This document shows positions 15,083 to 63,712 of a stretch of 64,000 bases of DNA, one piece after another. The position numbers were made by a program, and so were the translations under genes. Origin of the DNA: Escherichia phage 4E8; the sequence record OQ689734.1, one strand, 5' to 3'. A model generated the notes under the pieces. It made no database searches. It was not told the origin of the DNA and saw only the letters and a list, made by a program, of their open reading frames with translations. Each line of letters opens with the position of its first letter. The first letter of the stretch is position 1.

Positions 15083-15301
15083 ATGAAAATGATGAAACAA
15101 ATTAGTTATGGGTTAGCTTGTGTTGCTACCGGTTTTGCTGTGTCAGTGGCTGTCCCTGTTAATGCAGTGCACCCCCTGGTCACGCAACCTGCACCAATCG
15201 AGAAGTTAAGTGCATCTTGTAAGCAGCGTACAATTCAGAATAACCTTGTGGTTATCTGTCCGGACTCTGATTCTAGTGCTCTGAGAAACATGCTTCAGTA
15301 A
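15083..15301 (+). CDS. small protein with N-terminal hydrophobic/signal-like segment (possible membrane or secreted lysis-associated protein)
   Basis: 72 aa; MKMMKQISYGLACVATGFAVSVAVPVNA hydrophobic N-terminus; immediately upstream of the lysozyme. Confidence 0.4.
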   Translation: MKMMKQISYGLACVATGFAVSVAVPVNAVHPLVTQPAPIEKLSASCKQRTIQNNLVVICPDSDSSALRNMLQ

Positions 15302-15331: not shown

Positions 15332-15823
15332 ATGGATAATGTCGCATTGCCACCGATACAACTGAGCTTAAGCCCAGACGGGATGGAATTCATCATGAAG
15401 CATGAAGGTATGAGAACTCGTGCTTACCAAGATTCCGCAGGTATCTGGACGATATGTGTTGGGGCTACGCGCGATATGAATGGGTATCCAGTAAGACAAG
15501 GATTAACGTATTCTATAGAGGATTGTCTAGCTCTGCTAGATAGAGACACACAAGACTCTGTTCGTGCTACTCAGAAAAATATAAGAGTTCCTATGTTAGC
15601 TCACGAGTTTGATGCTGTCACTTCTTTCAATTTTAATGTTGGTGGTGGTGCTCTTTCAACCTCAAAACTTAGGAAAGTAATCAACGGGGACGTAAAGGGT
15701 GATGTTTATTCAGAGTTCTTACGTTGGGATAAGATAACTGTTAAGGGTGTAAAACAGCAGAGTCCGGGGCTTCACAATCGTAGGGTTGCAGAAGCAGACC
15801 TATACACCACAGGAAAATATTAA
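15332..15823 (+). CDS. GH24 phage lysozyme (endolysin or virion-associated muramidase)
   Basis: 163 aa; HEGMRTRAYQDSAGIWTICVG matches the E...D...T catalytic region of T4/lambda-type lysozymes. Confidence 0.75.
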   Translation: MDNVALPPIQLSLSPDGMEFIMKHEGMRTRAYQDSAGIWTICVGATRDMNGYPVRQGLTYSIEDCLALLDRDTQDSVRATQKNIRVPMLAHEFDAVTSFNFNVGGGALSTSKLRKVINGDVKGDVYSEFLRWDKITVKGVKQQSPGLHNRRVAEADLYTTGKY

Positions 15824-34336: not shown

Positions 34337-34561
34337 TTAAACTACACAGAACAAATACATTGCTGTGTCAGGACAAGGGATGTGATCACTAGGTTGCCTA
34401 ATTCTATCCCATTCATCATCTTCTGCTATATAATAAGCCCAATAAGACTCACCATCGTTGATGAAGAATTTGAATGTTCGTCCCCAAATCTGATTATTAT
34501 GTTCCCATACTGCATGAAACTGAGTAACACCTTCTGGTATTGTAAGTTCCGCTCTGATCAT
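34337..34561 (-). CDS. hypothetical small protein
   Basis: 74 aa ORF. Confidence 0.3.
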   Translation of the reverse strand: MIRAELTIPEGVTQFHAVWEHNNQIWGRTFKFFINDGESYWAYYIAEDDEWDRIRQPSDHIPCPDTAMYLFCVV

Positions 34562-34818
34562 TGTATCCCTCTCTCCTTGAGAGCTTTAAGCAAACCATTG
34601 TGGTTAGCGGCACAGGTTGTATAATTATCCTGATACCACTCAAGTGTTGTTGCAAATGCCACTCCCTGTGCACTCTGAAGTAAAGGGAGGTCTACATCAC
34701 ACTCAGCTTTTAGGTTTGTTGGTAAGGGCACTAGCTGCCTGCTGTTGTCGCTCATTGAACAAGCTGACATACTCATCGCTAGCACACACATTGTAAAAAA
34801 CTGGCTTAGTCTTTTCAT
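34558..34818 (-). CDS. outer-membrane spanin lipoprotein (Rz1-like o-spanin)
   Basis: 86 aa; signal peptide with lipobox MSAC; gene overlaps the 3' part of the upstream i-spanin-like gene in another frame. Confidence 0.55.
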   Translation of the reverse strand: MKRLSQFFTMCVLAMSMSACSMSDNSRQLVPLPTNLKAECDVDLPLLQSAQGVAFATTLEWYQDNYTTCAANHNGLLKALKERGIQ

Positions 34819-35050
34819 AATGCATCTCTTTGTAAACAGTTTCCGTGTTCTTCTTCCAGTTTGATAAACCAGTTAGAACTTTCTGAGCCACTTCATCAGC
34901 AGCCTTAGCTCTCTCAATCTCAATCTCTTGCTGTTTCTTCTCTTGGTCAAGAGCATTGCTGTCATTTCGATATTGCTCAAACTTGACACCACCAAAGAAA
35001 ACCAGAGCTGTGAAGATTAAAAAACCTATATTGTTTTGAAGCTTTTCCAT
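34703..35050 (-). CDS. inner-membrane spanin (Rz-like i-spanin); start set to MEKLQNN with GGAG SD
   Basis: N-terminal TM segment IGFLIFTALVFFGGV followed by a charged coiled coil; the o-spanin gene is embedded at its 3' end. Confidence 0.5.
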   Translation of the reverse strand: MEKLQNNIGFLIFTALVFFGGVKFEQYRNDSNALDQEKKQQEIEIERAKAADEVAQKVLTGLSNWKKNTETVYKEMHYEKTKPVFYNVCASDEYVSLFNERQQQAASALTNKPKS

Positions 35051-35061
35051 TTTAACTCCAA

Positions 35062-35086
35062 CGAAAAAAGCCACCCGAAGGTGGCT
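35062..35086 (-). terminator. minus-strand terminator (agccacc UUCG ggtggc + U-run)
   Basis: inverted repeat gccacc cgaa ggtggc preceded on the plus strand by AAAAAA; downstream of the 35109..35849 gene. Confidence 0.5.
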
Positions 35087-35849: not shown

Positions 35850-36394
35850 ATTAATATTTCCTTATATAAATTTAAGATTGTTGCTCTCTTTGAGCGGTTT
35901 GTATACTATATACATTACACTTATACAGATAAGGTTCTATTATACTATAACCTTTTTGGTAGTAGATAATAACAAATAGTAATGTATATATGGTATAGCT
36001 AGTAAAGCTATTGCAGGCTTGTATATTGGGCAATTCATAGAATCCCTTGCAAGTACCGAAGGGCAGGAGCCACCTGCGAGATAAAAATAGAGAATTAAGG
36101 AATCCTTGATTTAGGTTGTAGGGACTCCTAGGGACTTTGATTCTCTATTTAAAAGAATATTAATTACTTACTACCTAAATAATTAACTAACTTACTTAAA
36201 CCAAATTCAAGAATAATAGATAAAAAGATTATTCCTAAGAAAGCTAAAAAGTAAAGGATATAAGTTACCATTCAAGTAAACCTTTAAAGTTAGTTTGTTC
36301 TACTATCCTCTGATAACGAAGATTAGAATCAGCTTGTTTCTTTAACATCTCATTATATTTATCTCTGATAGAGTCTTTATAAACTACAGGTTCT

Positions 36395-45459: not shown

Positions 45460-45675
45460 TTAGTAATGAATCTTTTTATAAACCATGTTGCTTCCACTTT
45501 CTGTTTCAATCCCTTTCTGGATTGTAATCTTAGAAGCACCAGTGTTAACAATTTTTAAAGCTCGCTTAAAGCGGCGAGCCTCTTTCCGTGTGGAGTATGT
45601 TGAGAAGCTAGGGATTGTGCTATCAAAATTAAACCACTTAACTACCCAAAAAGTAATCCAAGGTTTCTTTTCCAT
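45460..45675 (-). CDS. small protein, member of a 4-copy paralog family
   Basis: 71 aa; shares W..V...TRKEAR..K..LK and C-terminal ...HY with 47542..48163 genes. Confidence 0.4.
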   Translation of the reverse strand: MEKKPWITFWVVKWFNFDSTIPSFSTYSTRKEARRFKRALKIVNTGASKITIQKGIETESGSNMVYKKIHY

Positions 45676-45949: not shown

Positions 45950-46142
45950 CATTCTATTCCTTGTTAATAAACAGATTGATATGACGCTGGGTAGCAGGAA
46001 CAACAATAAAAGATTTATACTGACCTTTTGCTAAGTCATGAGCAATCTTCTTTGTCTGACCAAGACCCATCACACAGCCACTAACGATAATGGCATGTGC
46101 TTGTAATTCTTCAGGTAGGTTTAGTTTCACTCTTTGGGTTCC

Positions 46143-46328
46143 TTATAGCATACAAAGAATAATAACAAGAGGTAGTGTTATAGCAAAATGTACCAGAACA
46201 ACACTACCAAGCTTGATAGCTTTAACATCCTCTTCTGCTGGGTTTTCTTTAATTGCTAAATTTCGAGCTTTATATATAACAGTACCAACTATTAATGACC
46301 ACACGGCCCACACAATCAGTGAAATCAT
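46143..46328 (-). CDS. small two-TM membrane protein (paralog 1)
   Basis: 61 aa; two hydrophobic segments; similar to the upstream gene (AIVWSVWAILVGGIVY / LIVWAVWSLIVGTVIY, KENP). Confidence 0.4.
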   Translation of the reverse strand: MISLIVWAVWSLIVGTVIYKARNLAIKENPAEEDVKAIKLGSVVLVHFAITLPLVIILCML

Positions 46329-46337
46329 ATCAAACCC

Positions 46338-46559
46338 TTATGCAGTCAACAGGTGGAGAAGGAAAGGAATGACAACAGAGAAAACTACCAGAGCAATGCT
46401 ACCATGTTTAATAGGTTTAGCATCATTCGGATTCTCTTTAAGCATCTGTTTCTGAGCCAGATAAACGATACCACCAACAAGAATTGCCCACACAGACCAT
46501 ACGATTGCTGAAAACATATTCATATCCTTATAAAGAAGTTCGCCCCACCTCTTAAACAA
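46338..46559 (-). CDS. small two-TM membrane protein (paralog 2)
   Basis: 73 aa; see paralog 1. Confidence 0.4.
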   Translation of the reverse strand: MFKRWGELLYKDMNMFSAIVWSVWAILVGGIVYLAQKQMLKENPNDAKPIKHGSIALVVFSVVIPFLLHLLTA

Positions 46560-46580
46560 AGAGACAGGGCGGAGGTTTGA

Positions 46581-47156
46581 TTAGTAAGACACATCACCAC
46601 TGGAGTGGGACATGTTGCTCTTGACGAAGTAACAGAACTTGCCAAGACCTTCATTGATTTCTTGAAGCATACTCTGATCAACTGGATAGGTGCACAAGTC
46701 TGAATCAAACTCGTCCATCTTCTCAATGATACACATAAGAGTCATGCACATGTCGGAAAGCATGCCGTCCATGTCGAGATCAGCGTTACCTTCTCGGAAC
46801 CAAGCATGACCTAAATAATTACTAGCAGTAGCATCCACTTTAACACAATGAAAGCGCATACGCTCTGCTATTCGGTCGCCTGCCTCACGAGCATAATCTT
46901 CTAGTTCATCGAACATACCATGAACACCTTGGAAACCAGCTCCAGAGACGTTCCAGTGGTAGTTCTTTGCTTTGATGTGTAGAAGTTCAAGATTAGCTTG
47001 CACACCACACAAGATGTGTTCTAAGCTGTTACCGCTAATCAGTTTATTCATTCCCTCAAGACGAGAGATAGAAGAGTCAGCAGTAGAGAATGGGTTGCTA
47101 GAACCCACTCGTGTTAGTTCTGGTAAGTCGAAGACATTATTATGCATTAGGTGCAT
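46581..47156 (-). CDS. Dps/ferritin-like protein
   Basis: 191 aa; YHWNVSGAGFQGVHGMFDELEDYAREAGDRIAERM closely parallels the Dps ferroxidase-site region (HWN..G..F...H......D..AER). Confidence 0.65.
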   Translation of the reverse strand: MHLMHNNVFDLPELTRVGSSNPFSTADSSISRLEGMNKLISGNSLEHILCGVQANLELLHIKAKNYHWNVSGAGFQGVHGMFDELEDYAREAGDRIAERMRFHCVKVDATASNYLGHAWFREGNADLDMDGMLSDMCMTLMCIIEKMDEFDSDLCTYPVDQSMLQEINEGLGKFCYFVKSNMSHSSGDVSY

Positions 47157-47469
47157 CCCCTTCTAAGTTAGTTGAATTAGCTACATTACGAGCAATGTTA
47201 TCCATGACCTGTTGTGTGATAACAATGCAATTCTGAGGGTCTACTGATTTAGAACGCCCCATTTCAGGGTCATAGACTTTGACTCGCTTGGCTGTTGAGC
47301 CAGTAACTTGCAACACTTTGAGAAGATAACCTTGATTTCCAATAGACCATGCAACAACATCACGATTCTTGATATAACGACCAAGCATATCACGATGATA
47401 GAACTGCTGCATAACTTTAGCTTTGCTAATCTCTTCGGCTGGCGGAGCCACTTTACTCAAATCTAACAT
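47140..47469 (-). CDS. hypothetical protein
   Basis: 109 aa ORF. Confidence 0.4.
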   Translation of the reverse strand: MLDLSKVAPPAEEISKAKVMQQFYHRDMLGRYIKNRDVVAWSIGNQGYLLKVLQVTGSTAKRVKVYDPEMGRSKSVDPQNCIVITQQVMDNIARNVANSTNLEGDAPNA

Positions 47470-47541
47470 TTCACTCTCTCCTGTTCAATACAATATTCTT
47501 ATACTGTATATACATTTGAGAGTGATCATATCTACTACCAA

Positions 47542-47751
47542 TCAGTAGTAAATTACTTTAGACATAAAAGAACCAGTGTTAGGGTCTTCATACCAGCGAT
47601 GTATGTCAGCGCTTTTTACTATTGTGCCCAGAATCTTCAACTGTTTCTTAGCAATACGAGCCTCTTTGCGAGTGTCAAACAATTTGATGCTATCTTTTCT
47701 CGTGTGTTGATCAAGATCCCAAACAACACGAATCGCCCACATCTTTTTCAT
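47542..47751 (-). CDS. small protein, paralog family member
   Basis: 69 aa; W.IRVVW...TRKEARIAKKQLK...YY. Confidence 0.4.
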   Translation of the reverse strand: MKKMWAIRVVWDLDQHTRKDSIKLFDTRKEARIAKKQLKILGTIVKSADIHRWYEDPNTGSFMSKVIYY

Positions 47752-47966
47752 TAGTAGTGCACCTTTCCGCTGATATAAATACGGCCTGAGGTATACTCAT
47801 AGCCCTTGAGAATCTTAACAGAGGTAGTGGAGCCATCGTTTAGTGCACAGATTGACTTCTTAAGATTGCGTGCATCTTCTCGTGTCTTCTGGTAGGTCAT
47901 GGTCACACCCCCACTCTTCCACTCTGTTTTAACTAACCAAACTATTTTCATAAGACCTGCTCTCAT
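47751..47966 (-). CDS. small protein, paralog family member
   Basis: 71 aa; IVWLVK...TREDARNLKK...HY; 1-nt stop/start overlap with neighbours. Confidence 0.4.
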   Translation of the reverse strand: MRAGLMKIVWLVKTEWKSGGVTMTYQKTREDARNLKKSICALNDGSTTSVKILKGYEYTSGRIYISGKVHY

Positions 47967-48163
47967 TAGTAGTACACCTTGCTTCCAGCCATGAACGCCC
48001 CTGTCGAGCTTATCATGGCTTTGCTGATAGTAACTTTCTTACACCGTAAACATACCTTCCAATTCTTTTTACAGATTCGAGCTTCTTGTCGAGTGTTACA
48101 AAAAATAGCCGAAGATATTTCTTGAGTGTTGTTGTCATAAACACGAACACACCACTTTTTCAT
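47966..48163 (-). CDS. small protein, paralog family member
   Basis: 65 aa; W.VRVY...TRQEARICKK...YY. Confidence 0.4.
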   Translation of the reverse strand: MKKWCVRVYDNNTQEISSAIFCNTRQEARICKKNWKVCLRCKKVTISKAMISSTGAFMAGSKVYY

Positions 48164-53299: not shown

Positions 53300-53497
53300 T
53301 TACCTTTTGTTTAAAATTTCTTTTGTACAAGAAGTCCCGTTACACACGAGAACTGTTTGAGTTATAGAATCGACAACTGTTACATGGCTGCCGCATTGAG
53401 TTATGATTTGACCTCTCCCTGAATCTTTAGAGATGCATTCATCAGCGGCGATCGCTGACACACTGAATAAGGAGAGGAAAAATAGAATCTTTTTCAT
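53300..53497 (-). CDS. small secreted Cys-rich protein
   Basis: 65 aa; signal peptide MKKILFFLSLFSVSAIAA, four Cys in the mature part. Confidence 0.4.
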   Translation of the reverse strand: MKKILFFLSLFSVSAIAADECISKDSGRGQIITQCGSHVTVVDSITQTVLVCNGTSCTKEILNKR

Positions 53498-62944: not shown

Positions 62945-63307
62945 TTACTCTGCTACCAAAAGGCTCAGAGATTTGCGAATGTAGTCAATACTACGGAAGT
63001 TTCGATAATTCTCTTGGAAGCGCATCTTTTCAAACTCTGCTTCCTGAAGCTCTACCTCTGCTGCTTTATATCCTGATAAAGCTAAACTTACCACATCCTG
63101 AGGTAAGGTATTACGGCGGCGAATAAGATATTTATTCGCTTTTAGTTTACCTTGTGCACGAGCCATTTTGGCCTTTGCCGCCTTGATACCATGAGAAATC
63201 CAAAGCAGTTGCTGTTTCAGATCTTCCTCATCCATACCGCCTAAATCATTTGCTACTTTATGAAGCGTAGACAGGTTCACATGGCCTTTAATGGGGCGTA
63301 GGTTCAT
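62945..63307 (-). CDS. hypothetical protein
   Basis: 120 aa ORF downstream of a 400-bp intergenic region. Confidence 0.4.
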   Translation of the reverse strand: MNLRPIKGHVNLSTLHKVANDLGGMDEEDLKQQLLWISHGIKAAKAKMARAQGKLKANKYLIRRRNTLPQDVVSLALSGYKAAEVELQEAEFEKMRFQENYRNFRSIDYIRKSLSLLVAE

Positions 63308-63712
63308 AACTTCTCCTGTTTGTCACATTGATTGGTTAGCCAGTTGTAAGACCCTCTGTTATTCTTGCTTAACTCGCAAGATGCAAAAGAGTACATCCTG
63401 ACAAACCCCACAGTGGCTAAGCAAATAAAGATTGCTGCCAATAAGAATTTAGCTTTCAACTTATTATCCATACAACCTCTTCTTTGAACTTAAAAAAGGA
63501 CTCTCATAAGAGAGCCAAGCTTTAAGGCCAATTAAATAGATATCACCCAATATCTGTGGATAACCTGCTCTTAAAATATTCTATCCGACGGATGTTCGAG
63601 GATTATTCCTCTCCCTAGCATCGGCCCCATACGGGAAATATTAAATTAAGATTAGGTTAGTTGAGCCAGAATAGCTCACATAGCCCTCTGATACTCACGA
63701 GGGCTATAGATG

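Follow-up and report, generated by a model that had tools for sequence, protein, structure and literature searches.

Tandem two-helix membrane proteins of the phiEco32 gp66 family in Escherichia phage 4E8: paralogues of a putative middle operon that are most likely not the lysis holin

Introduction

The Kuravirus-like phages of E. coli are common, have a broad host range and feature in studies of therapy and biocontrol. They divide their genes by strand, late genes being separated from middle and early ones, as described for the phiEco32 group (PMC9965538). [quoted passage not shown] P68 is explicitly a middle and P26 a late promoter in a third paper (PMC12276001), and the same three sources make P68, with its AATGTA core, a middle promoter dependent on the gp36 sigma factor and gp79 (PMC12276001, PMC4331800, PMC8948821); the temporal class of the phiEco32 promoters is taken here from such later papers citing the primary work. 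Gene 66 of phiEco32 belongs to a protein family which is already catalogued (PHROG 9296) but uncharacterised, a state of affairs that is nothing unusual for a phage.

Among small phage membrane proteins of described function, T4 Imm and HK97 gp15 are inner-membrane exclusion proteins that bind the membrane-inserting, channel-forming protein of the incoming phage (bioRxiv 10.64898/2026.03.06.709160). Identifying small lysis or exclusion membrane proteins in the Kuravirus-like phages would aid annotation, phage engineering and cocktail design, the last because exclusion between related phages affects co-infection. In this study, we consider two adjacent members of the gp66 family, genes A and B, and ask how far their sequence, genomic position and distribution bear on a role in lysis, in exclusion or elsewhere in the inner membrane.

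The window and its features

The window, by which we mean the whole stretch of 64,000 nucleotides analysed here (Escherichia phage 4E8, record OQ689734.1), derives from a phiEco32-like (Kuravirus/Gordonclarkvirinae) E. coli podophage and has the layout of the phiEco32 group, with the late structural and lysis genes on the plus strand and the middle and early genes on the minus strand. The 5-kb stretch around A and B is 92-95% identical to Bas88, vB_EcoP-101114UKE3, IME267 and ECBP2 of the phiEco32 group, and ~83% identical to NJ01, MN05 and WFI101126. The features discussed below are collected in Table 1.

Table 1. Features of the window considered in the text, with coordinates, strand and basis of assignment.
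Feature	Coordinates	Strand	Basis or remark
P68-type promoter element AAATGTATA	47509..47517	-	Pattern search; heads the operon with B and A
Gene 68 homologue, 109 aa, first in the P68 operon	47140..47469	-	PHROG 10984
Dps/ferritin-like 'DNA-binding protein', phiEco32 gp67 homologue, immediately upstream of B	46581..47156	-	PHROG 3636, Pfam Ferritin
Conserved 13-bp RNA stem-loop, terminator-like, between the Dps-like gene and B	46541..46571	-	Terminator-like scan
Gene B, 59-aa two-helix membrane hairpin, phiEco32 gp66 orthologue, core	46338..46517	-	Family alignment, Shine-Dalgarno spacing, PHROG 9296
Gene A, 61-aa two-helix membrane hairpin, accessory paralogue	46143..46328	-	ORF, Shine-Dalgarno, PHROG 9296, AlphaFold2
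58-aa soluble ORF directly downstream of A	45954..46130	-	PHROG 19504 match
72-aa ORF, conventional holin candidate of Kuraviruses	15083..15301	+	PHROG 11161 'holin', E 1.8e-46
Soluble phage-lysozyme endolysin	15332..15823	+	Pfam Phage_lysozyme, 6.4e-31
i-spanin	34703..35074	-	Overlapped by the o-spanin gene
o-spanin	34558..34818	-	Lipobox-like ...LAMSMSAC; overlaps the i-spanin gene

Family, fold and topology of A and B

Judged by sequence similarity, A and B are paralogues well above chance, being 45% identical over 58 residues (E 3e-17 in BLASTP with compositional adjustment), and both match PHROG 9296, a family of 59 positions labelled 'unknown function', over 1-59 (A, E 2.3e-30; B, E 3.9e-32). 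Common to the two are the motifs IVW.VW...VG..IY and K.ENP, followed by a second hydrophobic stretch. The first-pass annotation had described the pair as tandem paralogous small two-TM membrane proteins, and in this respect BLASTP, PHROG 9296, hydropathy and AlphaFold2 agree with it; the sequence pattern it quoted, including K..ENP and the second hydrophobic segment, is present in both proteins. The TM prediction that it had suggested as a check likewise bears out the description: Kyte-Doolittle hydropathy finds two hydrophobic stretches of ~20 residues in each protein, and in the AlphaFold2 model, computed from an 11-sequence alignment (mean pLDDT 89), the chain turns tightly at the invariant E-x-P between helix 2-28 and helix 32-60 to form a hairpin.

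In the family alignment TM1 is rich in Gly (VGG/IGGG) and TM2 has a conserved Pro; in A and B this second helix contains no acidic residue. The C-terminal ends (...VIILCML and ...LLHLLTA) stop within or right after TM2, such that neither protein has a C-terminal tail. The positive-inside rule is an established principle for orienting membrane proteins and, because every Lys and Arg of A and B sits in the inter-helix loop, it would make this loop cytoplasmic and the two short termini periplasmic. PHROGs, Pfam, NCBIfam and PADLOC assign no function to either protein; the NCBIfam and PADLOC scans gave zero matches, a Pfam match to TMEM70 (E 0.2) did not reach the cut-off and was rejected, and the only PDB structures retrieved by Foldseek were generic helical hairpins (c subunits, HtrII), none at a significant E-value.

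As for the gene boundaries, A starts at an ATG with an AAGGG Shine-Dalgarno sequence 6 nt upstream. The reading frame of B spans 46338..46559 and, read from the TTG at 46559, yields 73 aa; this was the size given in the first-pass annotation, together with 61 aa for A, and of the two values that for A stands and that for B has to be corrected to 59 aa. We regard the longer version as an over-extension because the TTG falls within the conserved stem-loop upstream, because the homologues start later, all other family members beginning where the second Met of the 'MNMF' of B stands, and because this ATG (46517..46515) has an AAGGA Shine-Dalgarno sequence 7 nt upstream, from which the first ATG of 'MNMF' is separated by 1 nt. 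The 59-aa version is also the annotation in Bas88 and phiEco32. A longer ORF on the plus strand over the same DNA (46090..46455) was rejected as an antisense shadow of A and B.

The P68 operon

The intergenic region holding AAATGTATA is nearly identical to the sequence upstream of phiEco32 gene 68, and for this reason we place P68 at the head of a gene order running through gene 68, the Dps-like gene, the stem-loop, B, A, the 58-aa ORF and thioredoxin on to ThyX. Little space separates the genes of the operon, and B and A each end in a stop codon that runs into the next Shine-Dalgarno sequence (TAAGGG, TAAGGA). By analogy with its phiEco32 counterpart, the promoter would make the A/B operon middle-class.

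The stem-loop between the Dps-like gene and B has a minimum free energy of -20.1 kcal/mol (z -2.06) and is followed by a weak U-tract. Seven Kuravirus-like loci retain it, and in the divergent L014 two of its base pairs have changed in a compensatory manner; it is probably a leaky or partial terminator or an mRNA-stability element of the P68 operon.

Downstream, A and the 58-aa ORF (together 45954..46328) are ~99% identical in nucleotide sequence between the window and MN05, amid flanks of 62% (B), 77% (Dps) and 75% (Trx) identity. The 58-aa ORF occurs at an identity of at least 95% in 50 records, which include all the A-bearing records listed, and in the latter it lies immediately beyond A. 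It is on account of this high identity between divergent flanks, and of the adjacency, that we take the two to be a small cassette exchanged between lineages, and A itself is best explained as an older paralogue that is optional in Kuravirus-like phages. The vicinity contains a further patch of this kind, a 69-aa ORF (47542..47751, minus strand) which is 97.6% identical to MN05 in a neighbourhood of genes at 60-86%. To judge from these identity levels, the mosaic patches at 45954..46328 and 47542..47751 (-) indicate recent recombination between Kuravirus lineages.

The latter ORF is one of four paralogous soluble ORFs of 65-71 aa on the minus strand (47966..48163, 47751..47966, 47542..47751 and 45460..45675), three of them in tandem just upstream of P68. 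Common to all four are the motif T(R/K)(K/Q)EAR..KK and, at the C terminus, (V/I)(H/Y)Y; a homologue is found in the Grimontviridae phage PKM.Hi.22.6 (L022, 2094..2303).

Distribution among phages

By tblastn the B locus is found in 97 phage records, all of them Kuravirus-like, and B falls into two subtypes: that of the window, at an identity of at least 80%, in 23 of the 97, and that of phiEco32 gp66, at ~51%, in the other 74. The neighbouring Dps-like gene splits the records in a similar manner, 24 at 95% identity or above and 73 at 80-90%. At the protein level, B stands at 51% identity to phiEco32 gp66, and the adjoining Dps-like and gene-68 proteins stand at 84-92%; many small ORFs of the region diverge as much as B. 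Since other small ORFs are equally divergent and the Dps-like gene gives much the same subtype counts, we make no claim that B is unusually divergent or carries an arms-race signal, and in our reading of these comparisons the split would reflect ordinary lineage divergence.

Gene A is present at an identity of at least 80% in about 44 of the 97 Kuravirus-like records, with a protein that is 100% identical in 34. It co-occurs with either B subtype and is absent from members of both. B is thus a core gene and A an accessory one.

Beyond these phages, 5.8 billion proteins were searched by word index and 1.84 billion representatives with a full HMMER profile, and neither approach returned a relative outside the Kuravirus-like group other than P0021. 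The profile search gave three subtypes, one truncated copy and P0021, a protein of 56 aa with less than 40% identity which shares the ...IPFLIHL... second helix and is encoded on metagenomic contigs in identical synteny (Ferritin, 2-TM, Thioredoxin, ThyX). A match to P0020 (1106 aa, with low-complexity repeats) was dismissed as spurious.

In the window, Bas88, E20-1, phiEco32, ShigP1, EP335, MN05 and L014, the gp66-family gene is positioned between the Dps-like gene and thioredoxin/ThyX, and in every family-bearing locus examined the Dps-like gene is its neighbour. More distant phages with Dps, Trx and ThyX, namely SE131, 3H10_20, GAP52 and PKM.Hi.22.6 of the Grimontviridae and the Lahexavirus LAh_8, have neither a homologue nor a neighbouring 2-TM ORF. 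The proteomics supplement for SU10 does not list the gp66 homologue.

A scan of IMG/VR brought up a membrane protein of 81 aa, encoded on a contig of 232 kb (L013, 4001..4246). It resembles A and B in the first helix only and is missing from the profile search, and we do not count it as a homologue. From its translation we take it to be of the GlsB/YeaQ/YmgE type, its flanking ORFs being presumably a dCMP deaminase and a ribonucleotide reductase, likewise by reading of their translations.

Lysis genes of the window

The first-pass annotation had held that no holin is recognisable next to the lysozyme, a premise that is contradicted by the 72-aa ORF with a PHROG 11161 'holin' match, which lies 31 nt upstream of the endolysin gene. 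This ORF is core in 98 records. Its phiEco32 homologue, gene 16, bears the annotation holin, as do the homologues of SU10 and YF01, and the one in phage Paul is labelled 'holin class III' (PMC4281155, PMC7881722, PMC9965538). The assignment is positional and marks an unproven candidate. The protein has one weakly hydrophobic N-terminal segment, rich in Gly, Ala, Ser, Thr and Val, and a V-N-A that may be a cleavage site; its 43-aa C-terminal part contains two Cys. Its homologue in the Kuravirus ZCEC16 is described as having a signal peptide only and no TMD (PMC13417854, 2026). The ORF might encode a holin of class III, but equally a protein of SAR type or one that is secreted, and we regard the annotated holin of the Kuravirus-like phages as questionable.

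The endolysin contains no N-terminal hydrophobic segment, the maximum 17-residue hydropathy (KD17) being 0.57 in the first 60 aa; lacking both a signal and a SAR segment, it therefore needs a canonical holin. The spanin pair (34558..35074, minus strand) lies behind an exact TAATGTATA at 35909..35917. The o-spanin matches phrog_2425, and it is because this PHROG is labelled 'unknown function' that automated annotation missed it.

Small membrane or secreted proteins are not scarce in these genomes. The relative Bas88 encodes ~10 of them, among which are two further 2-TMD proteins of the early region, and A and B are not the sole alternatives; the pair, uncharacterised like the rest, is one of ~10 in each genome and comes as no surprise. 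In the window, a single N-terminal hydrophobic segment is seen in three minus-strand ORFs (36164..36271, 53300..53497 and 63304..63471; 35, 65 and 55 aa), which are possible membrane or secreted proteins.

Possible roles of A and B

The mechanism that we propose, as a tentative possibility only, is that A and B have an Imm-like role in exclusion or immunity at the level of the membrane. Members of the phiEco32 gp66 family of 59-61 residues, they would be expressed as inner-membrane helical hairpins, each with two TM helices joined by a charged helical tip of ~20 residues and a tight turn at E-N/T-P, the tip being cytoplasmic and the very short termini periplasmic. Co-transcribed from P68 with the Dps-like, thioredoxin and ThyX genes, behind a conserved hairpin that would probably attenuate their expression, they would be made from mid-infection on and might, inside the inner membrane, interfere with a partner specific to the lineage, most plausibly the membrane-inserting ejection proteins of secondary infecting relatives. 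Superinfection exclusion would result, and the possession of two paralogues could broaden or alter its specificity.

Any such role presupposes that the ORFs are genes. They are very short, no function is annotated for them, and many genomes do without A, as might be expected of chance ORFs or decaying remnants. This reading is nevertheless very improbable in view of the purifying selection acting on them (dN/dS of 0.07-0.32 within subtypes of the family; dN 0.06 and dS 0.2-0.27 for A in comparison with NJ01), their good Shine-Dalgarno sites and tight operon spacing, the confident predicted fold, and a full-length conservation extending through 97 records to one relative of less than 40% identity; by these measures A and B are evidently real genes. 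That they could be a holin/antiholin pair was the first suggestion of the first-pass annotation, of which the two-TM structure has been upheld and the lysis argument has not, its premise being wrong and most of the features of a holin being absent. On this reading, B would make the lethal inner-membrane holes that free the endolysin and A would modulate the timing. A and B are indeed small integral membrane proteins with two TMDs, and B is core; to this may be added the endolysin's dependence on a canonical holin, the weak hydrophobicity of the conventional candidate and the bare signal peptide of its ZCEC16 homologue (PMC13417854), and the fact that the spanins too are on the minus strand behind a gp36-type promoter, which extends the lysis genes beyond the late cluster. 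Against this, A and B end at TM2 with no hydrophilic, highly charged C-terminal domain, the N-out/C-out orientation predicted for them differs from the topology of class II holins, and Pfam, PHROGs and NCBIfam offer no holin family for them even at permissive E-values. Nor do they cluster with lysis genes, for they stand among nucleotide-metabolism genes, at a distance of 31 kb to the endolysin and of 11 kb to the spanins, in an operon whose P68-type promoter would assign it to the middle rather than the late class. The M-N-M of B, which might recall a dual-start motif, adds no charge, is absent from other members and has a first ATG poorly spaced from its Shine-Dalgarno sequence; fewer than half of the genomes carry A; and in the Paul record it is the gene-16 homologue that is designated 'holin class III', the gp66 homologue being merely a hypothetical protein. 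A and B are thus most likely not the lysis holin, and we keep the suggestion at the level of an unlikely one because the conventional holin is itself doubtful. A specific version of it, in which B would be the true holin of the Kuravirus-like phages, of a new tail-less N-out/C-out type under a middle promoter, with A an optional modulator of timing and the 72-aa 'holin' a periplasmic protein, either secreted or of SAR type, such as an antiholin-like regulator, is quite unlikely.

The exclusion mechanism is suggested by the lineage restriction of the family, by the accessory and mobile nature of the paralogue A and by the precedent of T4 Imm and HK97 gp15, small phage-encoded inner-membrane proteins such as A and B also appear to be from hydropathy and AlphaFold2. 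Superinfection exclusion was also the alternative offered by the first-pass annotation, and the data are compatible with it. It is nonetheless speculative: PHROGs, Pfam, NCBIfam and PADLOC give no similarity to Imm, gp15 or another exclusion family, and what argues against it is that A and B, as modelled, would expose almost nothing to the periplasm, that their expression class would be middle and not early, and that mosaic patches are common in the region and its small ORFs equally divergent. Alternatively, A and B might serve some other host-takeover or housekeeping function in the inner membrane during the replication phase, for instance by modulating a host protease, transporter, divisome or respiratory component, by countering a membrane-acting defence, or by tethering phage replication or nucleotide-metabolism proteins. 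With such a function would accord the invariant place of the family between the Dps-like gene and thioredoxin/ThyX, even in the divergent L014, the Gly-rich TM1 and the conserved Pro of TM2, which suggest helix packing with a partner, the conservation of the charged cytoplasmic tip, and the report that Gordonclarkvirinae are unusually resistant to tested defence systems (PMC11990801). Yet collinearity by itself would lead one to expect such synteny in close relatives, the Grimontviridae and Lahexavirus keep Dps, Trx and ThyX with no homologue or analogous 2-TM ORF, PADLOC and the annotated families provide no match, and no specific partner can be named. Taken as a whole, this broad class of functions falls a little short of an even chance, and collectively the 'other membrane partner' possibilities are as likely as exclusion, or more likely.

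Comparison with known systems

In size and number of helices, A and B recall the class II holins and pinholins such as phage 21 S68, which likewise comprise ~60-70 residues and two TMDs, and a Gly-containing TMD could in both cases support oligomerisation. The class II holins, however, are N-in/C-in proteins with a charged cytoplasmic C-terminal tail and a dual start, expressed late from genes adjacent to the endolysin, and none of these properties is found in A and B. The hairpin geometry with its predicted cytoplasmic polar loop is also that of the F-type ATP synthase c subunit, which gives the best Foldseek match (TM-score ~0.78); with a Foldseek E-value of at least 0.5, and with no membrane-embedded carboxylate in A and B, the likeness does not amount to homology.

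T4 Imm and HK97 gp15, the models for the exclusion mechanism, resemble A and B in being small, phage-encoded, inner-membrane proteins confined to one phage lineage, and are without sequence similarity to them. The imm gene of T4 is an early gene, whereas A and B would be middle-class. Furthermore, Imm is modelled with four helices (bioRxiv 10.64898/2026.03.06.709160), compared with the bare hairpin of A and B.

The closest described relative remains phiEco32 gp66, to which B is orthologous: the two proteins are of equal length and 51% identical, and occupy the same slot between gp67 (Dps-like) and gp65 (thioredoxin). The same family, PHROG 9296, also holds A, as a paralogue, such that where phiEco32 has a single gp66 copy the window has two copies and the 58-aa ORF.
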